From positions 1 through 37,047 of the forward strand of contig DATLTL010000061.1 of assembly GCA_035533635.1 (NCBI GenBank): DNA of 37,047 nt. Direction: 5' to 3'. The position numbers and the translations under genes are program-made. A model generated the notes under the pieces. It did not search any database. It was given only the letters and a program-made list of their open reading frames with translations, and had not been told where the DNA came from. The first letter of the stretch is position 1, and each line of letters opens with the position of its first letter. Positions 3,423 to 28,845 of this stretch are shown here, in pieces. This DNA is from Nitrososphaerales archaeon (lineage in GTDB: Archaea > Thermoproteota > Nitrososphaeria > Nitrososphaerales > CADDZS01).

Positions 3423-4841
3423 TTGCAAGACTGCACGCTGAATTTCGACAAGGGAACCATAGTAGTGAGAGGGGATGTCAGGATCCCAAACACTTCGTGG
3501 GACGAAAGAATCAAGTCGTTCAGGGCTCAGGCTCTTCACTACAGCGAGATTGTGCAGTACCTGAAGCGGAGCGCTCTTCCATTTTCCGACTTTGTGCAGG
3601 AAGGTTTGATGCCCTGCCCAAATTTGAGCTGCCCATCCATAAAGCTCAGGGGATACCAGAAGCAGGCTCTTACGGCATGGGACAAGTCGGGAAGGAGGGG
3701 AACTATAGTCCTCCCGACAGGATCTGGAAAGACGGTCATAGCCCTGAAAGCTATTGAACTAGTTAACCAGTCTTCAATCATTCTTATCCCCACTCTTGAT
3801 TTGTTGGAGCAGTGGAGGAAAAGACTCGCAAAAGAGCTCAACGTAGAGGTCGGAGTATACGGCGGCGGCGAAAACACGCTAAAGCCAGTGACAGTTTCTA
3901 CATACGATACCGCATACATTAGGGCGGCCGAGCTCGGGAACAGGTTCTCCCTTCTCATCGCAGACGAGGTCCATCACATCGCTTCTGAAGGGTACAGGCA
4001 GATCGCCGAGATGTTCGCGTCTCCCTACAGGCTAGGGCTGACAGCCACATTCGAGAGGGAGGACATGCTTCATAATGAAATCCCACGGCTCGTCGGTGGG
4101 GTCGTGTTCCGGATGGAGCCTGAAGATCTGGCCGGCAGGTACCTCTCCAACTTCCGGATAGAAAGGCTCAGGGTAGACCTCAAGGAAAATGAGGCGCAGG
4201 AATACGAGAAATACCACTCAATATTTAGAGACTACCTGACGAAGAACAGGATAACTCTGAACACCCCAATACAATTCCAGAGGTTTGTGATGAGGAGCGG
4301 CAGAGATCCGGAAGCGAGAAGGGCGCTGCTCGCAAGGAACAAGGCTCAGAAGATTGCCTTCAACTCAGAATCCAAGATAGAGAAGCTGGAGGAGATTCTG
4401 AGAGAAAATAGGAATGAGAGAGTGATAATATTCACTCAGCACAACGATCTGGTGTACAGAATTTCAAGGAGGTTCCTGATCCCCTTCATAACTCACACAA
4501 CGAACAAGGACGAAAGACACACCGTTTTGGAGCTCTTCAACAGCGGAGAGTACAGGGCCGTCGTCACATCCAAGGTTCTGGACGAGGGGATTGATGTCCC
4601 TGAAGCTTCGCTCGGAATCATCCTCAGCGGAACGGGAAGCTTAAGGGAGTTTGTGCAGAGGCTTGGCAGGGTCTTGAGAAAAAAGACTGACAGAGACGCA
4701 AGGTTGATCGAGATAGTATCAAGCGAGACATCGGAGGTTAACACGAGTTCGAGGAGAAGGAGGGGCCACCGAGATGGTGCGTCATCTTCATTGTCTCCTG
4801 AAAAAGCGTCGTCCACAAGCTCTGGAAGATCATATCAATGA
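3423..4841 (+). CDS. xpb: XPB (Rad25/ERCC3-type) superfamily-2 DNA helicase
   Basis: N-terminal damage-recognition-like domain (LNFDKGTIVVRGDV...WDERIKSFRAQALHY). Helicase motifs LRGYQKQA, PTGSGKT, DEVHH and LGLTATFEREDM (the XPB-specific RED motif), plus VTSKVLDEGIDVPEA and REFVQRLGRVLR. Confidence 0.85.
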   Translation: MQDCTLNFDKGTIVVRGDVRIPNTSWDERIKSFRAQALHYSEIVQYLKRSALPFSDFVQEGLMPCPNLSCPSIKLRGYQKQALTAWDKSGRRGTIVLPTGSGKTVIALKAIELVNQSSIILIPTLDLLEQWRKRLAKELNVEVGVYGGGENTLKPVTVSTYDTAYIRAAELGNRFSLLIADEVHHIASEGYRQIAEMFASPYRLGLTATFEREDMLHNEIPRLVGGVVFRMEPEDLAGRYLSNFRIERLRVDLKENEAQEYEKYHSIFRDYLTKNRITLNTPIQFQRFVMRSGRDPEARRALLARNKAQKIAFNSESKIEKLEEILRENRNERVIIFTQHNDLVYRISRRFLIPFITHTTNKDERHTVLELFNSGEYRAVVTSKVLDEGIDVPEASLGIILSGTGSLREFVQRLGRVLRKKTDRDARLIEIVSSETSEVNTSSRRRRGHRDGASSSLSPEKASSTSSGRSYQ

Positions 4842-4953
4842 TTGGTATTGAAGAATCTCGGATAGATTGGATACAGCCAACTCGTTCATTCAACTCCAAG
4901 CAACTGATTTGATCTCGCTAAGTCGAACAAACAGGGGAGGTTGAAGTCTACAT

Positions 4954-6741
4954 ATGCTTCCATCAAATCTACTGAGAGCAAGGGTTTCGAGAGGAGGCGC
5001 GATAAGGCTCCTATATGCATCTCCCGTTACCACCGCAGAACTTGCGCACAGCCTGATCGACATTTTCAGGAAATCTCAGGGGATGAAGAAAGGTGACCTA
5101 TTCGAAAAGCTGGAAGAAGCAGAGTCGACTGGTGATAACGGCAAGAAAACAGACTCCACCATGGTAGACCATGACTACAAGCTCGTGAGGGGGCTTTCGG
5201 AACTTCTGATGAGGATGTGCGTTTTTGAATCTGAAAGAACTGAGATAGATCCCAAACGTGCAAGGGAGCTTGTCTTCAGGAAAGCAAGCAAGAGCAGGGC
5301 TACTTCAGTTTCAGAGATTGGTCGGGTGATTAGCGAAGCGGCCAGCGAGGTGGGGAAGAAGGAAGAAGATCTTCAAAGATCGCTCTGGGCCGACCTCGAC
5401 GAAGAGCTCATCATGAAACAGTTTAACCCGCCAAAGAGCGCGGAAGATCTGATCAGGTCATACAACCTGTCCCTAGCCCAAACCGCTCTTTTCAAATGTT
5501 CAAGGTTAGAGTTCACGGCCTCCGGGAACTGGAAGAACATCTTCTGGGGAATCAAAAGGCTCGGAATGATGTACGTAGTAGAAGCAGTCAATGGCAGTGG
5601 GAGCAGCAGTAGCAGCAGTAATAATAGAAGCAACAACATCGGTGACAAACCCGATTACTTGGTTTCTCTCGACGGCCCTCTTTCGCTTTTCAAGTGGACC
5701 GACAGATATGGGACCTCACTTGCCAAACTCCTTCCTCAGATAATAGGAAACGAGTCTTGGAGAATAAAGGCACAGATAGTCGATAAGAGGAAAAACAGGA
5801 TCCTTTCCTTCGAGGAATCGAGCGAAAACACAAGCGGGTTTTTTCCCACTGATGAGGCAATTGGAGGCAGACGACTGTACGACAGCAGCGTCGAAGAAAA
5901 GTTTGCAAAGAGTTTTGCCTCCCTCGGCGATACGGGGTGGACTCTCAGGAGGGAACCAGAGCCGCTCTTGACTGATCCTTCGCCCGAGACTGGGATCAGG
6001 CATATCATAATCCCAGATTTCAGCTTTGAGAAACGGGGTACGCGGAAGAAGGTCTATCTGGAAATAGTGGGATTTTGGACTCCAGAGTACCTGACAAGGA
6101 AGCTCGAGAAGCTCTCACTGCTCCCGAAGGATTCTGTTGATATCATAATAGCCATCGACGAGGATCTGGTATGCTCAAGCGGCGGGGATAGGAGGAAGTT
6201 CCTTCATCTTGTTCCTGCTCTAAACGAAAGAAGGGTGGTCACCTATTCATCAGGGAAGAAAGTTCCTCTCGCGCCGATTTTCGAACACCTCAAGCTGATA
6301 GACGATGAAATCGTAAAAGGAGAGACCCAGCGGATTTTGGAAATGCTCAGAGGGGCTGAATTCAAGCAGGATGTGATCCGGCTGGAAGAGATTGCCTCGA
6401 ACTGGGGCGTCACCCCCAAAGCAGTACGTGCCGCGCTCGTATCAGAGGGTGTGAATGGATATTCCAAGATCGGCGACCATTTGGTCAGCGAAAAGAAACT
6501 AGAAGAAGTAAGAAAGAAAATAGAAGTGCTCATTCACCGCACTGCCGGACATACTAAAAATGGATCAACAATAGCAGAAGTAGTGGGAGCAAAAGCAGAG
6601 GAAGAAGCAAGCCTGATGGAAGTGAACGATGCCATACAGTCGTGCGGCCTCGATCCACCCGGCGTTATAGAAGCGTTGGGTTACACCATTGTCTGGGAGG
6701 GACTGGATATGGATAAGAGTAGGGTGATCAGGGAAAAATGA
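4954..6741 (+). CDS. bax1: Bax1 / DUF790 family nuclease (XPB partner)
   Basis: N-terminus MLPSNLLRARVSRGGAIRLLY is typical of DUF790/Bax1. PD-(D/E)xK-like core IIIPDFSFE ... VYLEIVGFWTPEYL. It lies directly downstream of xpb, as in characterised archaeal XPB-Bax1 pairs. At 595 aa it is longer than I recall for typical Bax1 (roughly 400-460 aa), with a Ser/Asn low-complexity insert and a C-terminal extension. Confidence 0.75.
   Translation: MLPSNLLRARVSRGGAIRLLYASPVTTAELAHSLIDIFRKSQGMKKGDLFEKLEEAESTGDNGKKTDSTMVDHDYKLVRGLSELLMRMCVFESERTEIDPKRARELVFRKASKSRATSVSEIGRVISEAASEVGKKEEDLQRSLWADLDEELIMKQFNPPKSAEDLIRSYNLSLAQTALFKCSRLEFTASGNWKNIFWGIKRLGMMYVVEAVNGSGSSSSSSNNRSNNIGDKPDYLVSLDGPLSLFKWTDRYGTSLAKLLPQIIGNESWRIKAQIVDKRKNRILSFEESSENTSGFFPTDEAIGGRRLYDSSVEEKFAKSFASLGDTGWTLRREPEPLLTDPSPETGIRHIIIPDFSFEKRGTRKKVYLEIVGFWTPEYLTRKLEKLSLLPKDSVDIIIAIDEDLVCSSGGDRRKFLHLVPALNERRVVTYSSGKKVPLAPIFEHLKLIDDEIVKGETQRILEMLRGAEFKQDVIRLEEIASNWGVTPKAVRAALVSEGVNGYSKIGDHLVSEKKLEEVRKKIEVLIHRTAGHTKNGSTIAEVVGAKAEEEASLMEVNDAIQSCGLDPPGVIEALGYTIVWEGLDMDKSRVIREK
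5593..5637 (+). repeat. AGC/AGT/AAT/AAC trinucleotide low-complexity tract inside bax1 (encodes GSGSSSSSSNNRSNN)
   Basis: Direct reading: ggc agt ggg agc agc agt agc agc agt aat aat aga agc aac aac. Confidence 0.8.
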
Positions 6742-6815
6742 TCCAATCTGAAACTCCACGATTCAGTGTGGTGCTACGCCGAATCGCAATTTCGCATGGC
6801 CAATGTGTTTAGGAC

Positions 6816-6821
6816 TTTTTT
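6816..6821 (+). terminator. oligo-T tract downstream of bax1 (possible archaeal terminator)
   Basis: A T6 run about 75 nt after the bax1 stop. Archaeal RNA polymerase terminates at oligo-T. Confidence 0.3.
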
Positions 6822-6871
6822 CAATTCAACTACTTCAAATTGGCAGTTTTTCCAGTCCTGCTCCTAGCAGA

Positions 6872-7139
6872 TTATAATGTCACAGTTAGCGTTTCAACAG
6901 CGTCGTCCGGTTGAATTTCCCGGTCGAGCTTTTTCTTGACTTGGCGCAGAAAGTCTATAAGTTGCCTGGTGTTGGAAATCCTAGTTTGGGACAACTGAAT
7001 ACAGACTCAGATTTTCTTTGATGCTTTCTTCATCAGCTGGAATCTCTCTTGTCCCAGTCGACTCTAGAATAGTAATTGCGTCCTTCAGAGATTCGTCGCT
7101 CGGAATAAACTTGTACAGTGTCTTGAACGTCGAAAAGAA
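6872..7139 (-). pseudogene. decayed gene remnant (two overlapping reading-frame fragments)
   Basis: Minus-strand fragments FFSTFKTLYKFIPSDESLKDAITILESTGTREIPADEESIKENLSLYSVVPN* (7139-6981) and VCIQLSQTRISNTRQLIDFLRQVKKKLDREIQPDDAVETLTVTL* (7006-6872). Both look protein-like but lie in different frames, each bounded upstream by a stop. They sit in an otherwise ORF-free 870-nt gap. Confidence 0.3.
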
Positions 7140-7403
7140 TCATTGAACACAAGGTACGCAGTCGACACCAATGTACTTGTACATTGGTTGCTAAAGTCTG
7201 ATGGACTGAGAGCAAAGATAATCAATAGTCAGACGTTCGCCAAAGTCTAAGAAAGGTAGCAGAAACATCGTTGAACAATATTTCGTACTCTTAGTCCATA
7301 ATGCAGAATCATGTTGTGAAACATGGCTTTCCCTCCCTCAACATCTGAGAAGTTCGTGCGTTCAAACGCACATGGAGTTAGGGCAAGCGCCGCGGGTTAC
7401 CTT

Positions 7404-7449
7404 AACTTACTCACTCACGTGCCACGTTCTCGTCTCTCGTTTCCTCTGT
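7404..7449 (+). repeat. 46-bp direct repeat, copy 1 (weaker similarity extends left to about 7392)
   Basis: aacttactcActcacgtgccacgttctcgtctctcgtttcctctgt is identical to 14514-14559 except for one base (7413 A vs 14523 G). Confidence 0.9.
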
Positions 7450-7614
7450 CCCTAATCTTAGCACTCGCTCGAATTTAAGCGTTCGACCCGGTTGCTTCTC
7501 AAAGCCAAGCCGTAGCATTTGCGGTACATAGAACAAAAGTTTGAGCACCTACGCTCCTCGTGATCTACGGTTAACGCGAAATCAGGTTAACTACATTTAA
7601 GCATGGGGTGACGG

Positions 7615-8928
7615 TTAACATTTTCCGCCGAGGAACGATGTGTTTGTTCCAATCGTATCAATTCTCCCTATCTTATTCAATTTGAGTGACAAGAGATAGC
7701 TCAGACTGACTGGTTTGTAGTCTAACAGCTCACAGCTGACGTTGATCGTCCTCTTCTCTCCTTCGACGAAAGGATAATCTCTCACGTTATTGTTGTGTTT
7801 GTCGCCGTGAATGACCCAGGCGCGATTTGCTTCCACCCACCTTCGAAGGTCGTCGGGCAGTTCATTGGGATCGTGTGCTACAGCGAAGCACTTCGTTTCC
7901 TTCTCGTATTCGTCCCTGATACTGAATTTGTCGAATTGGATAGTTCCCACGCTATCATCGTCATGGTTACCCTTTACGAAGATCTTTTGTCCTTTTAGTT
8001 TTGGCCACCAGTATTTCGAAGGCTTGCGATCTCTTCCAAATGTTAGGTCGCCGAGAAAGTAGACCTTGTCATTGTCCCCTACTGTACCATTCCAGTTTTG
8101 AATAAGTACACTATTCATTTCGTTGATATCTTCGCAGAAGGGTCTTGCGGTATAGCTGATGATATTTCCATGGTCAAGATGAAGGTCGCTGATGAAAAAT
8201 ATTTTGGGATTACTCCTCATGCGTGAAAGCTGCCCAAGCAATCTAGAATGCTTCAGTTCGATCCCCTTCTCGACCCTGTACGCTTTGAGTGTCTTGCGCC
8301 ATTCGCTCCAATCTAGCGCCTGCTCACGCGTGAAGAGCTTCTTCCGAACCAGATCGTATTCCCGATCAATTCTGCCTCCTTGATCAAGTATTGTCACCCT
8401 CAGCGCATCTAGAGGGAGGTATGGCCTCCCTTTCTTGATGTGGAGATTTTGTCCTTTTGCCCCATCTCTTCTAGAATGTTCATTGCTTAGGAATTCCCAA
8501 ACACGTTGAAGGTCATCGTCAGAAAGATCCCATCCAATAGTAATGTGGAACCAGGGGTCATTGTTCTCGTGATCCCAAGGTTGTACACTCGGGAAATCTT
8601 TGCTCAAAGCTCTTACCAACTCCCTTCTAAAGGAGAGAAGTTCAGGACTCGGCAGAATTCTGAACGCAATTACGTTGCCCTCGGTGCCCCTAACCTTCGA
8701 TTCGTAGTCGTCGACAAGATAAGGGAGAGTGCTATGCTTGTTGCATACTCTTTCGAGGAGTTTCCGTAGTTCCGGCCACTTGCGTTCCGGGACTTCGGCG
8801 TTTCCGTACAAAGTTAGATGCGGAATCTTTGCAACCTTTCCGTGGCGTACTAAATCGTTTGCTGCAACTGCATTCAGCACAGACCTAAAGCGGAAGTCGC
8901 CCGGCCTGACCCTAAGCTCGACGAGCAA
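7615..8928 (-). CDS. 2H phosphoesterase (LigT/CPDase-like) fused to a calcineurin-type metallophosphoesterase
   Basis: The N-terminal half has the two HxTx motifs of the 2H superfamily (IPHLTLYG and WFHITIGW). The C-terminal half has metallophosphoesterase motifs FFISDLHLDHGN, YFLGDLTFG, VKGNHD and VIHGDKH. Confidence 0.7.
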   Translation of the reverse strand: MLVELRVRPGDFRFRSVLNAVAANDLVRHGKVAKIPHLTLYGNAEVPERKWPELRKLLERVCNKHSTLPYLVDDYESKVRGTEGNVIAFRILPSPELLSFRRELVRALSKDFPSVQPWDHENNDPWFHITIGWDLSDDDLQRVWEFLSNEHSRRDGAKGQNLHIKKGRPYLPLDALRVTILDQGGRIDREYDLVRKKLFTREQALDWSEWRKTLKAYRVEKGIELKHSRLLGQLSRMRSNPKIFFISDLHLDHGNIISYTARPFCEDINEMNSVLIQNWNGTVGDNDKVYFLGDLTFGRDRKPSKYWWPKLKGQKIFVKGNHDDDSVGTIQFDKFSIRDEYEKETKCFAVAHDPNELPDDLRRWVEANRAWVIHGDKHNNNVRDYPFVEGEKRTINVSCELLDYKPVSLSYLLSLKLNKIGRIDTIGTNTSFLGGKC

Positions 8929-9015
8929 GAATACTCACTCCCCTTCCCTGCCAAATCCGCGAATGCAAGGATTCCGACGCGTCAGCTGAAGAACGTATCG
9001 TCCACACCTTCGGGT

Positions 9016-10317
9016 TTGTCTCTTATCGTAAAATTAGTTGTTAGATACGGCTTCTCTAGAAATTGGGTAATTGACCATGAGCTCAATTACTGGCTCCAAA
9101 GGGTTCAAGGAGACATGGTCCAATTTCAAACAGCAAACAAGAACAACTCCAGTCACGCCTGGGATGCGATGGTGGACGATGATACGCCTCAGCTTGAAGA
9201 AGGTGAGGTAACACGCGATTTCACTTCCACCGAGCAGTCTTCTCCATACGGGGAAATCGCTCCCGCAAAGCATGACGTTTCCAAGATTCTCGGAGAGGAC
9301 CCGGCAACCATCGGGAACGCACGTTATTGGCTCATCCGTGGAACCTTTGACTCTGTGAAGGACGCACGTATCTACAAGCAAATAGAAAAGGCCGTTCGCC
9401 ATCTCAAAGTGAGAGACTCGGACAGATACCAGCTCCAAGAACGCATCAAGAAGAAACTCCCAAAGACCCAGAATGAAACTGGACTCGCCATGAAGAAAGC
9501 TATTGCGGGCCTGTTGTACAGCGAAACACGAGAGTTAGGCGTTCCAGTTGATGAGCTGCAGAGATGCCTCGCGAACTCTGGAATCGACCTTAGAACGAAG
9601 AAGCTCAGGTTCGTTACGAGGAGGAGCGAAGGGTGCGAACAACATCCTCCTTCTTCCTCGTCACTTGTCGATCACATACTTCTCAACGGACAGAAACCAA
9701 GAGATAAACCAGTAGTGGAACAAATCGCATGTGGCTATTACGAAGTATCGCTAGTGCCGATGCTGGACGAGGTGCTAGGAGGAGGCGGTGATGTGAAAAT
9801 CGCTGTCGGCTGCGATTGTGCCATATGTAGCTTCGACGGGGCAGACATCAGTAGAGACGGCAAATCGGCTGTTATGCGTGCGAGCACGAAGAAGAGCTGC
9901 TTTGCAGCATTTCGCATGGCAAACAGAACGCTTCCCGCTGATCTGCAGCCTCTCGAAGATGAAAAGGGGCGACAGGAAAGAATGGAAAAGAAAATACTAG
10001 CGATCTACAGTCCCTTTTCTGACAATCATCCGCTCACAAGGGCACTCGCGATTCGTACTTGTTGCCTAGCTCAGCTACAGTCAGAGTTCCTGAGATGCTA
10101 CAGGGAGCTCACGGAGAACGGGACCGCAGGAACATCGCCAAGAAGCCTTGCAAGGAAAGCGGTCTTTGCCGCAGACGCTCGAGTCTACGCACATCTGTCT
10201 AGGGAGAGGAAACTTGCGGCGTGGGAACTCTTGATGCCCTCGCTTTCGCATCTGAGCGCTGAGGACAGAAGGTATGCGCTGGTGAGCGGGATATGCATCC
10301 CGTCAGAGTTCGCTTGA
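9016..10317 (+). CDS. hypothetical protein (Cys cluster VGCDCAICSF; no family recognised)
   Basis: Long ORF divergent from 7615-8928 and 16 nt upstream of the ParB-like gene, so probably in the same operon. The start is uncertain (TTG 9016 or the internal Met of MVQFQTANK). Confidence 0.5.
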   Translation: MSLIVKLVVRYGFSRNWVIDHELNYWLQRVQGDMVQFQTANKNNSSHAWDAMVDDDTPQLEEGEVTRDFTSTEQSSPYGEIAPAKHDVSKILGEDPATIGNARYWLIRGTFDSVKDARIYKQIEKAVRHLKVRDSDRYQLQERIKKKLPKTQNETGLAMKKAIAGLLYSETRELGVPVDELQRCLANSGIDLRTKKLRFVTRRSEGCEQHPPSSSSLVDHILLNGQKPRDKPVVEQIACGYYEVSLVPMLDEVLGGGGDVKIAVGCDCAICSFDGADISRDGKSAVMRASTKKSCFAAFRMANRTLPADLQPLEDEKGRQERMEKKILAIYSPFSDNHPLTRALAIRTCCLAQLQSEFLRCYRELTENGTAGTSPRSLARKAVFAADARVYAHLSRERKLAAWELLMPSLSHLSAEDRRYALVSGICIPSEFA

Positions 10318-10333
10318 GCGAGGGAAAAGAAAA

Positions 10334-11584
10334 ATGACTGAAGCAGTTGTTAGCAGTGGCACACCTACCCTGAAGGAGATTGAGCTTTCAAAATGCGACA
10401 TCCATCCACTGTTCAAGAACATGAGGTTCGACTGCGCCGAAGACATCGAGAAACTTTGCGAATTGATTCACATCAACGGTCAGCAGTTACCGGGAATCGT
10501 AGTTCCCGTACCTGGTAACGAAGGTTACTACTGGTCGACTATTGGAAACAGGCGGTTGCTTGCGTGCAAGATGTCAATGGAGAAGTACGGCACGCCAGAG
10601 ACGTTCCTTGCGATGATCAAAGAGGATCTAATAGATCAGGACATCGTAATCAAAAAGTACGTCGAGAACTTTTCGGAAGATGGTGGTGGCAGAAAGGATC
10701 TCTCTTTTCTCGAAGAAGCTTCCTCTCTCAGCGAGATGATTTCTAGATTCCCGACAGAGTTCAGAAAGAAAGTTGCAATAGGCATGAACGCGACGGAGGA
10801 AGCCATCCAGAGAAAAGTTGACTTGTTCAAAAGGCTGGATCCTGCGATGGTGGCCGACCTCCACAGGTTGGAGCGACACGTCGTCCCACCATTCTATTTC
10901 ACGTACGAACACGTGGAATCCCTCATATCACTCCATCTTGGTAGAGAGGCAACGCTCAAGATTGCGGCGCTAGTTGCAGAAAGGCGGGCATCTCCGTCGT
11001 TTGTAGATGCTTACGCGCTTGCACTCGACACTGGAAAAGTAGGTGAACCTGAATGGCTATACACGATATTTCCGGATATCGAGCGACGGAGAGAAGAGGA
11101 GAAGAAAAAAGACAAGATTTCACAAATGAAAGAGGTGGCAACAGCTCCTTCTTCTAATTCCGCATTTCTAAAGAATGCAGTCAGCGTAGGATGCTTCCAC
11201 TGCGGTTTCGAGAATCCACTCAAATCAACTCTCAAAGGAACCGTTAGCTTTCTGAATCCATCCGATCCAATTCACAAGGAATCGATGGAACCAATTTCAT
11301 ATCTCTTGCCTCCCAAGGTCTGTTGGAACTGCCATAAGCCATTCTCAATAATTGTGCACGGACGGACGAAGATCAAGTCGATTCCTCCAGTTGAAGAGAA
11401 CGACGAGTACGCTGGAGAAGAGTTAGCAGGTACATTCGAATCAAAGCTAGGGCTTATCGACTTCGATCAAGATGCGGCGGAGTGCAAGGAGGGTTGCTTG
11501 CTTTGCCACTGGATCTTTGCTACCATGAAGGGAAGGTTCAAGCTTGACCATGCGACGGGACGGTTCACTGTCAACGCTCAGTAA
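10334..11584 (+). CDS. ParB/Srx N-terminal-domain protein with C-terminal zinc-ribbon-like Cys pairs
   Basis: ParB-N-like segment IELSKCDIHPLFKNMRFDCAEDIEKLCELIHINGQQLPGIVVPV...YWSTIGNRRLLACKM (GxRR box). The C-terminus has CFHCG...CWNCH and CKEGCLLCH. Confidence 0.55.
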   Translation: MTEAVVSSGTPTLKEIELSKCDIHPLFKNMRFDCAEDIEKLCELIHINGQQLPGIVVPVPGNEGYYWSTIGNRRLLACKMSMEKYGTPETFLAMIKEDLIDQDIVIKKYVENFSEDGGGRKDLSFLEEASSLSEMISRFPTEFRKKVAIGMNATEEAIQRKVDLFKRLDPAMVADLHRLERHVVPPFYFTYEHVESLISLHLGREATLKIAALVAERRASPSFVDAYALALDTGKVGEPEWLYTIFPDIERRREEEKKKDKISQMKEVATAPSSNSAFLKNAVSVGCFHCGFENPLKSTLKGTVSFLNPSDPIHKESMEPISYLLPPKVCWNCHKPFSIIVHGRTKIKSIPPVEENDEYAGEELAGTFESKLGLIDFDQDAAECKEGCLLCHWIFATMKGRFKLDHATGRFTVNAQ

Positions 11585-11642
11585 ATGATCCAAAAAAGTC
11601 AGTTCGACCCCGCAATTCGATCAGCCTTTGCATAAGCGGGAA

Positions 11643-11690
11643 ATCCGATGAATATGCGATTATCCGATGGATATCGGATTTCCTTAAATA
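11643..11690 (+). promoter_or_regulatory. ATCCGATG direct repeats plus ATCCGAT/ATCGGAT inverted repeat next to a TATA-like box, upstream of the HTH gene
   Basis: atccgatg occurs at 11643-11650 and 11662-11669. The inverted repeat is atccgat(ggat)atcggat at 11662-11679. ccttaaata at 11682-11690 lies about 35 nt before ATG 11724. Confidence 0.45.
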
Positions 11691-11723
11691 CAATCGTCGA
11701 GACAACTAGCATGTCGTAAGACG

Positions 11724-12419
11724 ATGGTTAAACTAACAGCCCCGCAGACATCCAAAGTCATCAACTATCTCCTTGCCAACCCCAGCACATCTCAGGTCGA
11801 AATTTCAAGGAGTGTAGGAGTGTCACGAGATCTCGTCAACCATGTCGTCCACGAATTGGAGGCTCCAGGGATAGTTTTGCAGGAGGCGCGCGAACATCTG
11901 GAGCTCAAGGATCCTCTCAGGCTGCTTGAAGCTCTGTCAATCCAGCGTCCGCTGTCAAAGCATCTGATAGCCGAATTCAGGACGGAAGAGTCTGATGTGA
12001 CAAAAGTTGAGAGGATGGTAAGAAACGCGGCCGCTCATTTTTCAGATAGTAATGGCTATGCACTCACATGCTTTTCTGCTCTCTCCAAATACATTGAATA
12101 CTACATTACTTATCCAACAGTGCACGTGTACTCTGAAAGACCGGGCGAGCTTCGCAAGGGTCTCGTCGAAGGAAGAGGGGATGTTGTGGTTCAAATTCTA
12201 AAACCAGATTCTGAGCTGATACTCGGAAATGCAAGGCGGATGCGTGACTTGATGCTAGTCGAGCCTATACAGGTCGTCATCGACCTCTTCTGTCTCGGGG
12301 GCGCGGGGCGCGACGGAGCGATGAAGCTTTACGAAAACGTGAAACAAGTTGGCGGCAGCAATAAGAAGGACAAGGTTCAGATCTCCACTAGTAAGAGGAT
12401 CGTACGAAGAACTGCTTAG
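11724..12419 (+). CDS. winged-HTH transcriptional regulator, AbiEi-like antitoxin candidate
   Basis: N-terminal wHTH (VINYLLANPSTSQVEISRSVGVSRDLVNHVVHELEAPGIV) plus a C-terminal domain of about 150 aa. It sits directly upstream of, and overlaps, a nucleotidyltransferase-like ORF. Confidence 0.5.
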   Translation: MVKLTAPQTSKVINYLLANPSTSQVEISRSVGVSRDLVNHVVHELEAPGIVLQEAREHLELKDPLRLLEALSIQRPLSKHLIAEFRTEESDVTKVERMVRNAAAHFSDSNGYALTCFSALSKYIEYYITYPTVHVYSERPGELRKGLVEGRGDVVVQILKPDSELILGNARRMRDLMLVEPIQVVIDLFCLGGAGRDGAMKLYENVKQVGGSNKKDKVQISTSKRIVRRTA

Positions 12420-13167
12420 TTTCCTCCACTATTATCGGCACTTCGGAACGCCGACAATCATTGGAGGGTGGGCGGTGTATTTCTACAACCCGTACTATGG
12501 GTCTGTTGACATAGATGTCGTGGGGCCCAGCTTCAGAGGGTCCTTCTACGAAGTAATTGAGAGGTATGAGCGATCCCATGGATACGCTATAATTCCGAAC
12601 GAGCCTTTCGGTATAGAAGTCGTCGCGAGCAAGCCACTATACAGAGGCAAGAAGAAGATCGGCGAAATGGAGATCGACGCTTGCAGTTACGGACAAAACT
12701 CAGCCAGTCTGTTCCATGAAGATGAAACAAAGCATCTCCCATACTCCCTCTGCGGGCGAGAAGATCATCGAAGGGAAGCCGTCATAGCAAAAGACCGTAT
12801 CTGCTACGTTCCAAGCAGAGCCCTTCTGACGCTCTTCAAGGTGAAGGCTAGAAGAGACAGATCATTCGACATCAGTGCGAGGGGTGCGACCATGAATCCT
12901 TCCAGGCTTGAGTGGTTGAGAGCGAAGGTCGTCAAGGACGGTTCGGACATCATAGCTTTGCTCGACGATAAGAATCGAAGAGGTAGAGAGCTGTTGAATG
13001 ACCAGCTTGATTTTGCGCAAATGAAACGGATCGCCTCTGCACACGAGATAACCGATTTGGTGAGAGAAACTCTGCAGGAAGTGCTGAAAGACAATAGCGC
13101 GTTTTCTTTATACAACAGATATGTCGAGCGGAAAGCACTGCTACAATCCGTGGAAGCGCTGGACTAA
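12349..13167 (+). CDS. nucleotidyltransferase-fold protein, AbiEii-like toxin candidate
   Basis: IIGGWAVYFYNPYYGSVDIDVV resembles the GG(T/W)A...S.DID motif of AbiEii/COG2253-type nucleotidyltransferases. The only in-frame start found by eye is TTG 12349, giving an unusual 71-nt overlap with the HTH gene. Confidence 0.45.
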   Translation: MAAAIRRTRFRSPLVRGSYEELLSFLHYYRHFGTPTIIGGWAVYFYNPYYGSVDIDVVGPSFRGSFYEVIERYERSHGYAIIPNEPFGIEVVASKPLYRGKKKIGEMEIDACSYGQNSASLFHEDETKHLPYSLCGREDHRREAVIAKDRICYVPSRALLTLFKVKARRDRSFDISARGATMNPSRLEWLRAKVVKDGSDIIALLDDKNRRGRELLNDQLDFAQMKRIASAHEITDLVRETLQEVLKDNSAFSLYNRYVERKALLQSVEALD

Positions 13168-13295
13168 CAGTTTAAGCGGAGACTCGCTATGGAAAGCTAG
13201 GTACGTGGTCGCAGTGCTGAAGTATGCGCTAGAATCATGGTATACTTGATGCGCAGACGGTTGCAGGTTTCATTTCTGGAAGAAAGAGATGTCTT

Positions 13296-14459
13296 TTGAT
13301 GGAGGATGACACGAGTCGCCGCAAGAGGCTCGATCTTGAAACAATCAAGAAGGTGATCAGAAAACCTGACTTCAATCACGAAGGCATGTATGTTGAGGAG
13401 GTAATTGTGGATACAGACCTCTACAACAAAGTTGAGAATCTCACGCGGAAAATCTACAGCAAAAGACAATTCAAGTCCGATATCCGGTGGGAGGGACTCT
13501 ACGTTCCTGTAAACTCAAGAGGAAAGGAAATTTGCATCCCTCTTTTCATAATGAAGTTAAAGAACAATTATTTCCTCCACGTCGATAAAGTCGGCAGTAT
13601 CATAATTTCCACAAAGGAGTTCGCAACAAGAGAGAATCTTCCAAACCTTGGTTCAGCCGTGATCATCGACAGCAATGAAACTAAAGAATACCGAGTAACG
13701 AAGAATCTAGTACTATCTCTTGATGGCTTTCTGCCTGAACTGAACAAACCCAAGGCAATTGAAAAGAGAGTGCCGTATGAATACCGCGGCGGGAAAATCA
13801 AACGAAAATATGTTGTTTCGCACAGAGACCTCATGGGCGAACTGACAAAGAAACAAATCTTCAGGAGTTACAGAAGACACCTTCGAAAAGTCAGATCTGT
13901 AGATAGGATATCATTGAATGAGTATCTCCATACTGCGGCTATCGCGTATCGCGCGCTCTATCCAGAATTCCGAGACAAAAATTCGCTGGAAATGTACGAC
14001 AGCAGAGCGGATTTTAGACACGGTGGTATGCTTGATATCAAGGATGCGAACAGTAAAGACGAATACACGAACTGGCTTGTAAGCAGCACATGGTCGGGTT
14101 CCCACCCCTTTGAGATAATTGCAGGATACCGCACCATTGGAATCTGCCTAGATCCTCCAAGGAAAAACAAATACTTGCCCCAGGAGGAGAGCGGGTACTA
14201 TACTCTATCTGCGGGAGGAGCCTCCTACCATAAGACACTAGTTGATATTCTATCGGCCTTCATTAAGCGAAAAGCTCCGGTAAGAGCAGCTGGGCTCAAA
14301 GAAATTTTGAACTATCTAACGGGAAAGACGTTCCTCCGAATAGACGAATTCTGGTCTGATGAAACCGTTCCATATTCAACGCTGAAGCAGAGAAGATTAT
14401 TGAGCAAGGTCGTATGGGATAGGCTTTCATTCGCGAAGCTGCGCCATAGAAAGCGCTGA
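13296..14459 (+). CDS. hypothetical protein (387 aa, basic, no family recognised)
   Basis: Long uninterrupted ORF with ordinary amino-acid composition. It is the last gene before repeat copy 2. Confidence 0.5.
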   Translation: MMEDDTSRRKRLDLETIKKVIRKPDFNHEGMYVEEVIVDTDLYNKVENLTRKIYSKRQFKSDIRWEGLYVPVNSRGKEICIPLFIMKLKNNYFLHVDKVGSIIISTKEFATRENLPNLGSAVIIDSNETKEYRVTKNLVLSLDGFLPELNKPKAIEKRVPYEYRGGKIKRKYVVSHRDLMGELTKKQIFRSYRRHLRKVRSVDRISLNEYLHTAAIAYRALYPEFRDKNSLEMYDSRADFRHGGMLDIKDANSKDEYTNWLVSSTWSGSHPFEIIAGYRTIGICLDPPRKNKYLPQEESGYYTLSAGGASYHKTLVDILSAFIKRKAPVRAAGLKEILNYLTGKTFLRIDEFWSDETVPYSTLKQRRLLSKVVWDRLSFAKLRHRKR

Positions 14460-14513
14460 TCGCCGCGTCGCCGCACTACCACCATCCCTCTTCGCAGTGC
14501 GGATGGTTAGCTC

Positions 14514-14559
14514 AACTTACTCGCTCACGTGCCACGTTCTCGTCTCTCGTTTCCTCTGT
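14514..14559 (+). repeat. 46-bp direct repeat, copy 2 (related sequence extends left to about 14485)
   Basis: See copy 1. It lies 22 nt upstream of ATG 14581 of the methyltransferase. Confidence 0.9.
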
Positions 14560-14632
14560 GGAGCTGCTGCTTCTCTGGATATGAAGCGTTTACTGACTGG
14601 GCGAGTACTATACTCCAGATTGGCTTGCGGAA

Positions 14633-16831
14633 TTGATAGTCAACGAAGCTCTTGAAGATGAGACGAAAGAAATACTTGATCCGTCCTCTGGCTCCGGTAC
14701 ATTTCTAGCAGCTAGTATTCGTAGAAAGAAAGAATTGATGTCGAAGAACAAGAAATACTCTGCTTCTGCTCAACTTGACTTGATTATGCGAACTGTCAGA
14801 GGGATCGATGTTCATCCTCTTGCAATTATACTGTCAAGGGCGAACTATTTGGCAGCTATTGGACCTGAACTATTATCTGCGCGACGGGGCGCTATTTCGG
14901 TTCCTGTGTATCTTGCAAACTCGCTCAGACTTCCTGAGACCGCAACTGATCTGCATCAAGGCGTCAGTTCGTACAAAATTGATGCTGAGAAAAAAATTCT
15001 AAGGTTGCCAATACAAATTGCAAAAGATCCTGATTTTACGGATATCGCAATAGAAACAGTTCGCGAATACTCTCACGAGGTAGCCTCTGGGCTTAGCCCA
15101 AAGATTGAGGAATTTGAAAACTTGCTTTATCAGAGATTAACCGCTCAACAGAAAAACAAGCTCGAAAAGAATGCTCCAAGCATTCTTCTTGAAACCGCAA
15201 TCACAATGGCTGATCTTATCAAAGAGGGAAAAGACACGATCTGGGCATTTATTCTGAAAAACATATACAAACCTCTTTTTCTCCAAGCCGAAAAATTTGA
15301 TGTCATTGTAGGTAACCCTCCGTGGCTTTCGTACCGATATGTTGAGAGTACTGAATACCAAGATTTTCTAAAGAATTTGATAATTGATAAGTACAATATA
15401 CTCGGCAAGGAAAGAGCAGAACTAATTACACAGATGGAACTTGCAACTCTCTTCCTAGCTAGAGCATCGGACTTGTTTCTGAAAAAGCAAGGAACAATTT
15501 ACTTTGTCATGCCCAGAAGTGTCTTCGTAAGTGACCAACACTTCAATTTTAGAGATGGAAGTTCCAAGCCTTCAATGAAACTTTTCCAGCTTTACGATCT
15601 TGAGGATGTCGAACCTCTTTTCAAAGTGCCTAGTTGTGTTGTGGCAGCGAAATTTGGAACTCCCGCCAAACAAGTCGACGCTAAGATCTTTGAAGGAAAA
15701 CTTCAGCGGAAAAATGCTAAATTGAAAGAAGCTTTGGCAGTACTCACTTCCACTGACAAGAAATTTCAGTGTTACAGGATCGGGCAGCGCTCATTTCTTG
15801 AAAGCGTGGAATTTCAGAAAGTATTACGAGCAATCGAAAAAAGCAAGCCCAGTGAATATTACAAGAATTTTACGCAAGGCGCAACGATTGTCCCGCGTCA
15901 ACTGTGGTTTGTTGAACCAGTTGTCCACGAGAAACTTGGAATGGACCCTTCTATGCCGAGACTCAAGACTTCTCAAAGAGCAATTGATCGAGCAAAAGAA
16001 CAGTACGCAGATGTACGAGTGGAAGGCGAAGTCGAATCTAGATTCCTATTCGGAGTCGCCACGGGATCGGAATTAGCCCCATTCTGCTCAACCACACTTC
16101 CAGTAGTTGTGTTACCTATTGAGGCAAGTGAAGGCAAGTACCACATGCTTGATGTTGAGGAATCTCAAAGGAAAGGATACTCGGGATTGAAAGAATGGCT
16201 TGTAACTGCCGAGAAAACTTGGAAAAAGAAGAGAGGTGAAAAGGCGACCAAGATGAGCATCTACCAAAGACTAAATTATTCGCACTGCCTGACCAACCAG
16301 AGTTCAAAAAAGAAATACAAAGTTCTCTATAATGCATCGGGAACATATCTTGTATCGTGTATAGTTAGAAATCAGAAAGAGGTTGTCGAATTAGAAAATT
16401 CACGAATTAATATTACTGGAGTAGTCGCCGATGCGAAAGCTTACTGGTTCGATACAAACAACCTAGATGAAGCTCTTTTTATCACATCCATGCTAAACTC
16501 GCCCATTGTTGACTCTCTTATCAAACCAATGCAGAGTCACGGACTTTGGGGAGAACGTGATATTCACAAGAAAGTGCTCGAGCTTCCTCTCCCAAAGTTT
16601 GATTCGTCGAATAAATCCCATATCGCCATGGTAGAACTTGCAAAAAAAGCACAAGTGAAAGCCGAAACTTTGATTCCAAGTCTTGAAAAGAAGTACGTCG
16701 GGATAGGAAAAATTAGACAACTTATCAAGGTCGAATTGGCAGAGGAATTACTCAACATAGACAAGATCATGCGCGAATTACTTAGTAAGATTGGTGATTT
16801 GGACAGTGGAATGGAAGGCTTTCTCAAGTAG
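14633..16831 (+). CDS. gamma-class N6-adenine DNA methyltransferase (M.TaqI/Eco57I-like), 5' end disrupted by an apparent frameshift
   Basis: Motif I ILDPSSGSGTFL and motif IV VIVGNPPWLSY are present. Motif X GEYYTPDWLAELIV is encoded in-frame just upstream of the called TTG start, but that frame is closed by TGA at 14594. ATG 14581 (MKRLLTG) lies in the +1 frame. The long C-terminal region is a presumed target-recognition domain. Confidence 0.85.
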   Translation: MIVNEALEDETKEILDPSSGSGTFLAASIRRKKELMSKNKKYSASAQLDLIMRTVRGIDVHPLAIILSRANYLAAIGPELLSARRGAISVPVYLANSLRLPETATDLHQGVSSYKIDAEKKILRLPIQIAKDPDFTDIAIETVREYSHEVASGLSPKIEEFENLLYQRLTAQQKNKLEKNAPSILLETAITMADLIKEGKDTIWAFILKNIYKPLFLQAEKFDVIVGNPPWLSYRYVESTEYQDFLKNLIIDKYNILGKERAELITQMELATLFLARASDLFLKKQGTIYFVMPRSVFVSDQHFNFRDGSSKPSMKLFQLYDLEDVEPLFKVPSCVVAAKFGTPAKQVDAKIFEGKLQRKNAKLKEALAVLTSTDKKFQCYRIGQRSFLESVEFQKVLRAIEKSKPSEYYKNFTQGATIVPRQLWFVEPVVHEKLGMDPSMPRLKTSQRAIDRAKEQYADVRVEGEVESRFLFGVATGSELAPFCSTTLPVVVLPIEASEGKYHMLDVEESQRKGYSGLKEWLVTAEKTWKKKRGEKATKMSIYQRLNYSHCLTNQSSKKKYKVLYNASGTYLVSCIVRNQKEVVELENSRINITGVVADAKAYWFDTNNLDEALFITSMLNSPIVDSLIKPMQSHGLWGERDIHKKVLELPLPKFDSSNKSHIAMVELAKKAQVKAETLIPSLEKKYVGIGKIRQLIKVELAEELLNIDKIMRELLSKIGDLDSGMEGFLK

Positions 16832-17058: not shown

Positions 17059-18036
17059 TTGGCGGACAGCTCTAAGGGCAGTAGTGTCGAAATGCAACGA
17101 GCAGGGAAACCAAGTTCCACTCATTCGCAAAACGAAAAACCTGATTGGCTACTGGATCGCATCAAGACTTTGGAAGGTTACAACGAGAAGGCCCGAGATC
17201 TACTCAAACAGACAGGAGAAGTATACGAAGTCGGACCGCAAGCTGTGTTGAAGCTCAGCATTTTAGCATACTACCTTGATGTCTATACCCAGATCATTAA
17301 GAAGCGGTTCCCAAAGTCATACTTTCTTGACTTGTTTGCTTCTTCGGGAATCAATAAGATTGAGAACACTGATGAGGTGATATTGGGTTCACCTCTCATA
17401 GCTGAATACATTCCAGACAAGAAATTTGATAAGCTCATTCTCTTTGAAAGCAAGGAAGCGAGAGCGAAGGCGCTTCAAAAACTGCTTCCAAAAGCAAAGG
17501 TCGTTCACGGTGATGTTAACGCCCTCGATCTTACAAACTACTTCAAGGACGAGGAGGGCAAAATTGTTCCATTGTTCTGCTTTGCAGATCCAGAAGGTAT
17601 GGAGCTAGATTGGTCTACCATGACGCAGGTTCTGAAGACTTGGTCTGATGTCATGATAAATTACCATCCCGATGCTGTAAGAAGAACCGCAGGTCGAGCA
17701 TTCAAGAAGGATAAACCGTACGAAGATAGGATGAATAGTTTCTTTGGAACCGACCACTGGAAGCTCTTTCAGACTTTTGAAAGCGACGATGCTTTTTTGA
17801 ATTTATATATCTCCCAGATTCGTCAATTCAAGGAAATGGTCATACCGATCAGGGTCAGAGGACAGAAGAGTTATTACTATTACATTATATTCGCTGTTAA
17901 GAAAACAAATGGTACTCAAGGTTGGATCGATGCTATTGAGAGAGCGAAGAAACACATCGAAAGCTCCGATGCTTCAAGAACGCTGACAACGATCGATATA
18001 CAGCAAGGGAAACAACAAACGCTGTCCTTTGACTAG
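17059..18036 (+). CDS. tcmP: three-Cys-motif partner protein TcmP (TIGR04474-like)
   Basis: LKLSILAYYLDVYTQII...YFLDLFASSGINKI resembles the TcmP signature (K...Yl..Y...yiDlFAGpG). It sits immediately upstream (33-nt gap) of a Gp37/Gp68-family gene, which is the defining context of TcmP. The start may be ATG 17092. Confidence 0.65.
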   Translation: MADSSKGSSVEMQRAGKPSSTHSQNEKPDWLLDRIKTLEGYNEKARDLLKQTGEVYEVGPQAVLKLSILAYYLDVYTQIIKKRFPKSYFLDLFASSGINKIENTDEVILGSPLIAEYIPDKKFDKLILFESKEARAKALQKLLPKAKVVHGDVNALDLTNYFKDEEGKIVPLFCFADPEGMELDWSTMTQVLKTWSDVMINYHPDAVRRTAGRAFKKDKPYEDRMNSFFGTDHWKLFQTFESDDAFLNLYISQIRQFKEMVIPIRVRGQKSYYYYIIFAVKKTNGTQGWIDAIERAKKHIESSDASRTLTTIDIQQGKQQTLSFD

Positions 18037-18069
18037 AAGAAAAATGCGCGGATATGTTCAAAAAGAATA

Positions 18070-18873
18070 ATGGAGAGCCTATCTGGTCTAAGGAATGCGA
18101 GATGTCCTGAATTGGGAGACAAAAGCGCCATAGAATGGACTGACGCCTCGTGGAATCCTACCACTGGTTGCGATAAGGTATCACCTGGTTGCAAAAACTG
18201 CTATGCGGAACGTCTTGCTGGCAGATTACAACTTATGGGCAATCCGAAATACAAGAACGGTTTCAAGTTCACTGTCCAAGAGAGCGCCCTAGACCTCCCC
18301 CTCAAATGGAAGGAGCCTAGGAAGATATTCGTTAATTCAATGAGTGATCTGTTTCATGAAGAAATGCCCTTTGGGTATCTCAAGAGGTGCTTCGATATTA
18401 TGAAGAAGGCTGATCGGCACAGATACCAAATATTGACCAAAAGACCTGAAAGGATGCAGGAATTCGCGGAGTTCTATGGAGAAATCCCTGACCACGTATG
18501 GATGGGAACTTCGGTTGAAATGGCCTTCTACAAGAAACGGATCGATATTCTGAGAAACATAGAAGCAAAGATAAGGTTCATCAGCTTTGAACCATTGCTA
18601 GGAGCAATCGGCAAAGTGAACTTTAGAGGAATTTCTTGGTCAATAGTGGGTGGTGAGAGTGGACCTGGGCACAGGCCGATCGAAAAGGAATGGGTGCGAG
18701 AGATAAGAGATCAGTGCAAGACTCAAAAAGTTGCCTTCTTCTTCAAACAATGGGGTGGTGCCACGCCAAAGTCAGGTGGACGACTTCTTGATGGCAAGTT
18801 ATGGAACCAATACCCTGAACCTGCGCCTAACTACACTAAGCGGACAATGCAACCACTACAGCTAGTATCATAA
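18070..18873 (+). CDS. DUF5131 / phage Gp37-Gp68 family protein (PF07505-like)
   Basis: N-terminal IEWTDASWNPTTGCDKVSPGCKNCYAERLA is the family hallmark with its three-Cys motif. FISFEPLLG and VGGESGPG...FFFKQWGG are also family-typical. Confidence 0.8.
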   Translation: MESLSGLRNARCPELGDKSAIEWTDASWNPTTGCDKVSPGCKNCYAERLAGRLQLMGNPKYKNGFKFTVQESALDLPLKWKEPRKIFVNSMSDLFHEEMPFGYLKRCFDIMKKADRHRYQILTKRPERMQEFAEFYGEIPDHVWMGTSVEMAFYKKRIDILRNIEAKIRFISFEPLLGAIGKVNFRGISWSIVGGESGPGHRPIEKEWVREIRDQCKTQKVAFFFKQWGGATPKSGGRLLDGKLWNQYPEPAPNYTKRTMQPLQLVS

Positions 18874-19117
18874 TTGAATCGATCTACCTATTCATGATTG
18901 CGAATCGGAGAAACTCTCAGGTCAGTCCTCCAAGGAAGATTCACGCCTGTCTAACCTAGTCAATGGACAGGATTCAAGCCATCGCAGAGTCAATATTCGG
19001 AGCTTTATTTCAAACAAAGAAGGAAGCCAGTCATACGGTCCAATTCTATGATTGATTCCTTTTGCTCACGAGCAACAAACTAAAATTCCACGATTACTGA
19101 ACAATCAATGAGATCCA

Positions 19118-20188: not shown

Positions 20189-20193
20189 ATTAG

Positions 20194-23841: not shown

Positions 23842-24411
23842 TCATCTGATATGTCGTTCCAAACGGCTTTTTGTTTGGTTATACCATGTTTTGTAGTATA
23901 TTTGCCATGATCTACTTGCAAATATCACTTCTTCAGAAGCGTCTTTTGGTAAGCTTGAGTACATTAAGCGATAGGTCAAACGTAATCCAAGATTCGACTT
24001 GATTCTAGATCCAAGCCAACTAGAAATATTTTGAATCTCTGTGGCGGTGTCATGGTCAGAGTTATCCGCAGTTCGTCTTGCTACGTCTTTAGTAAATTCT
24101 GGCGCATCATCCGTGATGGTCATGTCGTAACCGTTTATGAAACAAAAGAATGCCGTTGTCATTAGAGCCGTTCTTTTGTTTCCATCTGTAAAAGGATGGA
24201 AATTGATGTATGCATACATCAGTGCGCTTATCTTGCTAAGAAGGCTAGGGAATGGGATAAAATGATAAACATCTGTCTTTACCCATTCAATCGAGCCTTC
24301 AACCATCCCCTTCGACATCCATCCTTGATCGCCTCTTAGCTTGATCAAGACATCGTGAAAGTCTTGAACGTATTTGGGTGTAGGATAGATTATCCTGTTT
24401 GGATGAGCCAA
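23842..24411 (-). CDS. Doc/Fic family protein (toxin-type)
   Basis: Fic-fold active-site motif HPFTDGNKRTAL, the Doc-type HxFx(D/E)GNKR variant. Size is 189 aa. Confidence 0.8.
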   Translation of the reverse strand: MAHPNRIIYPTPKYVQDFHDVLIKLRGDQGWMSKGMVEGSIEWVKTDVYHFIPFPSLLSKISALMYAYINFHPFTDGNKRTALMTTAFFCFINGYDMTITDDAPEFTKDVARRTADNSDHDTATEIQNISSWLGSRIKSNLGLRLTYRLMYSSLPKDASEEVIFASRSWQIYYKTWYNQTKSRLERHIR

Positions 24412-28838: not shown

Positions 28839-28845
28839 ATGGGAC

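Follow-up and report, generated by a model that had tools for sequence, protein, structure and literature searches.

Near-perfect direct repeats around a block of accessory genes in an archaeal defense island: possible att-like junctions of an integrated element

The attachment (att) sites of archaeal integrated elements, as described in crenarchaea, are 29–69 bp long, and intergenic targets are documented (PMC6563490, PMC8371274). Those described in thaumarchaea are mostly shorter, with a median of 17 bp, and tandem re-use of a single att site is also documented (PMC6563490, PMC8371274). Integrated elements become sequestered through mismatches between their att sites and through loss of the integrase (PMC8371274). 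We analyzed a stretch of 37,047 nucleotides (nt) from a Nitrososphaerales archaeon (assembly GCA_035533635.1, contig DATLTL010000061.1, positions 1 to 37,047; hereafter the window), in which two copies of a 46-bp direct repeat bracket about 7.1 kb of accessory DNA. An earlier note, made from the sequence alone, had likened this geometry to attL and attR around an integrated element. In broad terms, the repeat is a scar of recombination, with one copy of a short sequence at either junction of a stretch of accessory DNA. The reading we favor is more specific, and we give it a probability of roughly 40%. It holds that the copies are att-like junction repeats of an insertion of ~7.1 kb of accessory DNA. 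The integrase would have acted in trans or been lost afterwards, and the insertion may belong to a tandem array. We regard the bracketed interval as a plausible but unproven integrated cassette, which is probably immobilized.

The cores of the repeat lie at 7404–7449 (copy 1) and 14514–14559 (copy 2) in the same orientation and are identical at 45 of 46 positions, with a single A/G difference. Alignment bears out both the near-perfect repeat described in the earlier note and the weaker similarity that it had reported to the left. In gapped form the match extends to 52/55 (7395–7449 versus 14505–14559) and, in a longer version, to 57/64. Copy 1 then covers 7386–7449 on the plus strand, with an exact stretch of 36 nt at 7414–7449, and copy 2 covers 14496–14559, also on the plus strand. 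A repeat search of the window returned this single family (64 nt, 89% identity, spacing of 7110 nt). The right edge is abrupt and similarity decays leftwards: the rightmost 36 nt are identical without exception, and all three mismatches of the 55-nt version fall within its left 19 nt, a distribution with a probability of (19/55)^3 = 0.04 by our calculation. Beyond the repeat, the 150-nt flanks of the two copies are as dissimilar as shuffled sequence, since the observed score was reached by 38 of 200 shuffles on the left and 131 of 200 on the right. When two sub-motifs were searched with up to three mismatches, matches were found at copy 1 and copy 2 only; two matches occurred in 0 of 100 shuffles. 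The repeat contains a short palindrome, ACGTG-C-CACGT (5-1-5).

Both copies are intergenic, the type of location in which integrated elements find targets. The initial impression that the repeat was not obviously part of a transfer RNA (tRNA) stands: a search for tRNA and tmRNA genes detected none, and covariance models recognized no Rfam family there at gathering thresholds or at E ≤ 10. A match to sR16 was dismissed (12 bits against a gathering score of 70 bits, E = 7). A coding function was rejected because no frame across either copy is both open and plausible. RNA and DNA folds within the repeat do not rise above those of shuffled sequences (z-scores of +0.6 to +1.6 over both strands of both copies). 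With no tRNA, Rfam family, coding frame or special fold, we conclude that the sequence is not conserved for the sake of a gene product.

The ~46 kb of this genome that were searched (the window plus ~9 kb of extra flank) contain no third copy, and neither 287 kb of related loci nor a plasmid database contained diverged copies. Exact scans with a 36-mer and a 24-mer of the repeat gave zero matches in species genomes, IMG/VR and JGI metagenomes, the scope being contigs other than the window's own; the JGI set includes further contigs from this sample series (Ga0307372, Ga0307373). The absence of matches in scans that take in those contigs argues against a dispersed repeat of the miniature inverted-repeat transposable element (MITE) or repetitive extragenic palindromic (REP) type. 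The repeat also lacks the features of that class, having two copies only, no inverted partner and no significant fold. The genome-wide search that had been suggested for the 46-mer extends over ~46 kb of the genome and the public scans, and as far as these data reach the repeat is not dispersed.

Six open reading frames (ORFs) lie between the copies (7615–14459). Six accessory genes are thus enclosed, as the earlier note had it, but its "six-gene cassette" is not one unit. The first five genes (7615–13167) constitute a module that recurs, with the same genes in the same order and ~75% DNA identity (69–81% at the amino acid level), on five other contigs (L023–L027) from two Nitrososphaerota metagenome-assembled genomes (MAGs) and three other assemblies. 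DNA similarity to these relatives spans exactly 7652 to 13166, and their flanks are unrelated to the window. The sixth gene (13299–14459, plus strand) encodes a 386-amino acid (aa) protein and lies outside the module although inside the bracket. It is absent from the module contigs of the relatives; its homologs, which are 31–37% identical, are solitary and stand among housekeeping or unrelated genes. The 386-aa protein matches no family, and its AlphaFold2 model, with a predicted local distance difference test (pLDDT) score of 64.8, found no Foldseek/PDB fold match at E ≤ 0.001.

Module gene 1 (7615–8928, minus strand) encodes a 437-aa fusion of a 2H/LigT-like phosphoesterase and a calcineurin-like metallophosphoesterase (Pfam 2_5_RNA_ligase2, 3.9e-08, and Metallophos_2; PHROG phosphoesterase, 2e-38), with 71% aa identity in L023 and L025. 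Gene 2 (9016–10317, plus strand) encodes a 433-aa orphan without a match in Pfam, PADLOC, NCBIfam, PHROG or PDB. Its family is very rare: searches of 5.8e9 and 1.84e9 proteins gave three close relatives and 29 representatives, respectively. An exhaustive profile search and a domain scan revealed no informative domain in any member, and the AlphaFold2 model is unusable (pLDDT of 43.5). The product of gene 3 (10334–11584, plus strand) has 416 residues, with a ParB/RepB-type N-terminal domain and a Cys-rich, zinc-ribbon-like C-terminal half; it matches the NCBIfam RepB/ParB model at 3.6e-12, below the curated cut-off, and a ParB-like PHROG, and tblastn aligns residues 16–154 with a rhizobial repB. 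Gene 4 (11724–12419, plus strand) encodes a 231-aa winged-helix regulator (Pfam HTH_24, 2.6e-06) and gene 5 (12475–13167, plus strand) a 230-aa orphan that matches no family; both are 80% identical at the aa level in L023 and L025.

An operator-like palindromic element followed by TTAAATA precedes the regulator gene (11639–11683). It reads GGAAATCCGAT ... ATCGGATTTCC, with internal ATCCGAT/ATCGGAT repeats as its arms and an 11-nt perfect inverted repeat. The palindrome and TTAAATA are near-invariant between the window and L023/L025, while coding DNA is only ~75% identical. The sequence of the putative operator has no relation to that of the bracket repeat. A two-gene core, consisting of the 433-aa and ParB-like proteins (61% and 55% aa identity), occurs on two further contigs, L021 (at 4045–6445) and L022, in another neighborhood that starts with Phage_integrase and RecA-like ATPase genes. 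The five-gene block regulates itself and moves as a module from one archaeal genome to another. It lacks a PADLOC match, lies in a defense island and may be regarded as a candidate for a new defense or plasmid-maintenance module. A search for viral or proviral relatives of the interval proteins and of the neighboring methyltransferase found none.

The surroundings of copy 1 are informative for the insertion reading. The window is an archaeal defense island, with housekeeping genes to the left of the window. Upstream of copy 1 stands a pair of genes for an XPB helicase and a Bax1/DUF790 nuclease (3423–6741), the helicase scoring 7e-57 against PADLOC PbeA models. The pair is kept in distant archaeal MAGs, where XPB is ~64% identical and the remaining window genes do not accompany it. 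The 644 nt between Bax1 and copy 1 (6742–7385) are non-coding, with no ORF of 80 aa or more and no Rfam match at E ≤ 10, and a six-frame Pfam scan of 6742–7614 (E ≤ 1) gave nothing credible. This gap is not conserved in relatives that have XPB–Bax1. Because the pair is conserved and the gap and neighbors are not, copy 1 lies near the border between conserved and lineage-specific DNA, and its position at such a core/accessory boundary supports an insertion. Further support comes from the cargo, since most of the enclosed DNA is mobile and its two-gene core is found next to an integrase gene elsewhere (L021 and L022).

The insertion would have entered an intergenic site just downstream of XPB–Bax1, at the edge of the defense island. 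A circular donor carrying a ~55-nt site would have recombined reciprocally with a chromosomal site of similar sequence, probably by means of a tyrosine-type integrase encoded outside the interval. Such an enzyme might be supplied in trans, for example by a neighboring element of a tandem array that re-uses the site, or might since have been lost. In the tandem-array variant, the core would be followed by copy 1 with a first element, by copy 2 with a second one and so on, and a third copy and the integrase of the array would lie beyond the assembled right end, which IS66 interrupts. The confinement of mismatches to the left arm is what would be expected if two sites that had already diverged in one arm shared an identical core when they recombined. 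The element is probably now fixed, given that it has no recombinase, one mismatch in the core and composite content, and that its occupancy does not vary among five assemblies. The sequestration reported for other elements (PMC8371274) matches this lack of variation.

Several observations weigh against an att-mediated insertion, among them the missing enzyme. That no integrase or transposase is recognizable inside the interval had been stated at the outset, and family, six-frame, PDB and fold searches all agree. The six enclosed proteins match no integrase, transposase or recombinase family in Pfam, PADLOC, NCBIfam or PHROGs; PDB sequence searches were negative as well; the six-frame translation of 6742–7614 carries no recombinase signal; and the model of the 386-aa protein has no recombinase-like fold. 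Neither an integrase nor a recognizable piece of one was found in the rest of the window or in a 3.9-kb extension that includes a partial gene past an IS66-family transposase gene (~52 kb of context), and this extension beyond the right end contains no third copy of the repeat. The module relatives on L023–L027 are without the bracket repeat in the flank at hand. The interval is composite, being made up of the five-gene module and the unrelated solitary gene. The ENA and JGI contigs examined offer no empty site, circle junction or occupancy polymorphism: every long contig with Bax1 or the interval shows the occupied state, and the k = 31 unitigs are unable to reveal an empty one. Relatives of Bax1 did not provide an empty site either, since the nearest other genomes, MAGs labeled "archaeon" and "Nitrososphaerota", are 41–43% identical in Bax1, too distant, and have no downstream DNA in common with the window.

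Composition adds a further point of the same kind, as GC content, GC at third codon positions (GC3) and the tetranucleotide signature show no break at copy 1 and the interval resembles its left flank. GC3 declines gradually, from 0.55–0.68 in the left flank through 0.53–0.57 over the module and 0.50 for the 386-aa gene to 0.39 for the gene that follows copy 2, with 0.40–0.49 further right. Housekeeping genes have values of 0.42–0.55, and the tetranucleotide signatures all correlate (r = 0.54–0.83). Composition is uninformative, as it does not single out the interval as a discrete foreign unit and yet is compatible with its being one. The attL/attR comparison in the earlier note is thus upheld in part. 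The direct att-like repeats, their intergenic location and the mobile cargo speak for it; the missing recombinase and empty site, the relatives without the repeat, the composite content and the smooth composition speak against it.

The last of these adverse points lies just outside copy 2, which ends 37 nt from an independent breakpoint. The gene that follows (14597–16831, plus strand) is a type IIG (MmeI-like) restriction-modification (RM) gene truncated at its 5′ end, a truncation that is absent from the earlier note. The methyltransferase and target-recognition parts are kept, and ~338 N-terminal codons, the restriction half, are gone. More than 100 homologs are ~1080 aa long, and homology in the window begins at their residue 338/339; a profile built from 70 of them aligns from position 338 at window position 14594. 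The PADLOC model REase_MTase_IIG (1100 positions) is covered from 35 to 1061 by an intact homolog, P0012, and from 405 to 1073 only by the window ORF, which lacks the first part of the type IIG model and has therefore lost its restriction half. An intact enzyme of this type joins in one chain an N-terminal endonuclease part, a gamma-class N6A methyltransferase (motifs DPxxGxGxF and NPPW) and a C-terminal target-recognition domain. The ORF has the methyltransferase motifs DPSSGSGTFL and NPPW and the C-terminal part; lacking residues 1–338 of the homologs (model positions 1–404), it is a shortened derivative of such an enzyme. In register with the DNA of P0012, identity is ~25% to the left of 14597 and ~70% to the right. 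A profile search with all filters off found no N-terminal remnant anywhere in the window. The closest intact homolog did not lead to an ancestral locus: it shares no synteny and sits in an unrelated defense neighborhood. The ORF remains open over 732 codons, which suggests that the local arrangement is young in comparison with the 5–11% divergence in the left part of the repeat. The truncated gene may be a recent pseudogene or else a methyltransferase on its way to becoming an orphan. Two other proposals were rejected. Insertion of the cassette into the RM gene does not fit, because the window contains no trace of the missing 338 codons and 37 nt separate the breakpoint from the repeat edge. 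The 386-aa gene is not a restriction partner of the methyltransferase, because its homologs never adjoin one.

Because copy 2 lies so close to the RM breakpoint, the repeat could belong to a rearrangement that was not site specific. This is the main rival to the att-like reading, and we consider it somewhat less probable than that reading. The repeat would then be a scar without a dedicated function that arose independently of a recombinase, either by Campbell-type homologous integration of a circular DNA through ~55–64 nt in common with the chromosome or as a short templated patch from the break repair or deletion that cost the RM gene its 5′ third. The failure of every search to find a recombinase fits such an origin, as do the composite interval and the absence of a compositional break at copy 1. 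The 37 nt between the repeat edge and the breakpoint (14560–14596, plus strand) are unexplained filler, containing an ATG at 14581 that is one base out of the RM frame, and filler of this sort is typical of illegitimate junctions. Exchange of modules between integrated archaeal elements by homologous recombination has moreover been described (PMC8371274). However, a recent templated copy should be uniformly identical, and the mismatches cluster in the left arm. The homology of 36–55 nt is also short; even the "homologous" reaction driven by the pTN3 integrase needed at least 104 bp (PMC8371274). Finally, the edge of the repeat and the RM breakpoint do not coincide.

It is a good deal less likely that the repeat is a duplicated regulatory segment. 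In this scheme a promoter, operator or leader, with ACGTG-C-CACGT as a protein-binding site, would have moved with the truncated RM gene or been copied in front of it. Copy 2 does lie 22 nt 5′ of the ATG at 14581, and deletion of a single base would make this ATG the start of a 749-aa methyltransferase; the short palindrome within the repeat would also suit a binding site. Contig L021 offers a precedent, in that a 15-nt promoter-like string is repeated there 7.6 kb apart before two start codons. The string (CCGCGTGTTATAAGG ... AGCATGA) is found at 154–192 and 7739–7777, directly upstream of the start codon of the integrase gene and of a 51-aa gene; by analogy, short direct repeats in such islands may be promoter copies. 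Copy 1, in contrast, is not upstream of a plus-strand gene (the next starts at 9016) and sits past the 3′ end of the minus-strand LigT-like gene. A 46-nt match at 98% identity far exceeds what a binding site would need, and by direct reading the repeat has no clear archaeal TATA box or B recognition element. The more restricted proposal that the repeat is an operator of the winged-helix regulator was rejected, as the module has a different conserved operator-like element (11639–11683).

We attach slightly less weight still to the view that the copies are two solo ends of a repeated mobile element, whether a MITE, an insertion sequence (IS) or another terminus, which stayed behind when the bulk of the element was deleted, and that the bracket is coincidental. 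The sharp right edge with inward decay does resemble diverged element termini, and an IS is close by. An IS66-family transposase gene lies just past the right end of the window, on a contig that reaches 3.9 kb further. Contig L019 (1–5400) equals the window until ~36,600 and then continues into an IS66-family transposase gene, which suggests that the population is polymorphic for an IS66 insertion or has a repeat boundary here. All assemblies end nearby. Neither point is matched by the repeat itself: the window, its flanks, the related loci and the public scans with their same-series contigs hold no further copy; no inverted partner, hairpin or significant fold accompanies it; and it has no similarity to the IS66 region in L019.

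The window is a MEGAHIT metagenomic contig (ENA ERZ27256801, k141_1533292). Both copies, in the same arrangement, are present in three ENA MEGAHIT assemblies and in at least one JGI assembly. Between these assemblies there are 0–4 single-nucleotide polymorphisms in up to 21 kb, with none in the repeat or the interval. The Logan k = 31 contigs end within the 36-nt exact stretch, and the interval appears as a unitig of 7134 nt; this is the behavior expected of a genuine two-copy repeat, so that the repeat is confirmed, and it does not inform on occupancy. An assembly artefact, in which two loci were chimerically joined at a common short repeat as might be feared of a metagenomic contig, is highly improbable given the agreement of independent assemblies from two pipelines, the Logan unitig lengths and an exact stretch far below the final assembly k-mer of 141.

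The rest of the window is a collection of paired and single defense-type genes. At its left end, Pfam/PADLOC-type scans placed a 341-aa orphan that overlaps a BrxL-like Lon ATPase (529–3063). The latter has the N-terminal and ATPase domains only (491 aa), and other bacteriophage exclusion (BREX) genes are absent within ~10 kb; the two may form a stand-alone two-gene system. To the right of copy 2, the Eco57I/MmeI-type methyltransferase ORF is followed by TcmP and DUF5131 (a three-Cys-motif pair) and by NurA with a HerA-like ATPase (17059–21687), then by a Fic-domain gene (23842–24411), by Nmad3 and Nmad2 (27951–29466) and by many small ORFs. The TcmP–DUF5131, NurA–HerA and Nmad3–Nmad2 pairs are modules typical of defense islands. 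The ORF at 29840–30316 contains a 54-nt tandem duplication (30019–30126, 53/54 identical) that forms an in-frame repeat of 18 codons.

What the locus means depends on whether the site works. Were the 46-mer a functional att site served in trans, it would show that defense genes can be shuffled in archaeal islands without an integrase for each cassette, and it would provide a defined 46-bp substrate. A stronger version, in which the 46-mer serves specifically for inserting and swapping defense cassettes that have no integrase, the recombinase is encoded elsewhere, by the host or by a neighboring element, and the module is a new defense system carried as cargo, strikes us as rather improbable; it would be the archaeal equivalent of cassette capture of the Xer-exploiting or integron-like sort. 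On present evidence the repeat is the ordinary scar of an insertion or a rearrangement, in an archaeon that is poorly sampled. The by-products are more useful: a rare, conserved and self-regulated five-gene module that is a candidate for a new defense system, and a clear case of a type IIG RM gene that lost its nuclease half at a rearrangement junction.

Among described systems, the att-like reading places the locus closest to the cryptic archaeal elements that are bounded by attL and attR and use a tyrosine integrase of the pNOB8 or lambda type (PMC6563490, PMC8371274). Like them, it has direct repeats of att length, a few kilobases of accessory or defense genes and an intergenic target, and its cargo module is found in other genomes, in one case beside an integrase. 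Unlike them, the interval has no integrase of its own or next to it, and its content is a mosaic. With the defining integrase absent from the interval, membership in this group is not established. The locus also resembles tandem arrays of the NitGar-E1/E2 type (PMC6563490), in which an internal att copy likewise separates two blocks of genes and which start at the core/accessory boundary; a third copy and a far-end integrase are not seen here, where assemblies stop at the IS66 copy.

Integration of SSV-type (class I, "suicidal") elements splits the archaeal integrase gene (PMC7253208, PMC8371274), which would account for an apparent lack of an intact integrase. Such an element was rejected, as no ORF runs through either copy and no fragment resembling int(N) or int(C) stands beside them. 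A composite or IS-bounded transposon was discarded as well: transposase genes are absent from the interval and its immediate neighborhood, the repeats have a direct orientation and a length of 46–64 nt, and the sole IS is the IS66 copy >22 kb away. Integron cassettes share with this locus repeat-delimited, promoter-poor accessory genes in an array-like region. Unlike attC, however, the repeat here has no imperfect hairpin, no IntI is present and an interval of 7.1 kb with six genes is far above cassette size; the fold z-scores and the missing integron integrase led us to reject this class. IMEX, the bacterial integrative elements that exploit the Xer recombinase of their host, are likewise inserted blocks between direct repeats of a recombination site, without a recombinase of their own. 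The repeat here is not dif-like, having a 5-1-5 palindrome (ACGTG-C-CACGT) only and no 11-6-11 one, and nothing ties it to XerA; we know of no archaeal IMEX. Set against these systems, the repeat and its interval are probably a decayed or trans-dependent integrated element of a known sort rather than a new kind of system.

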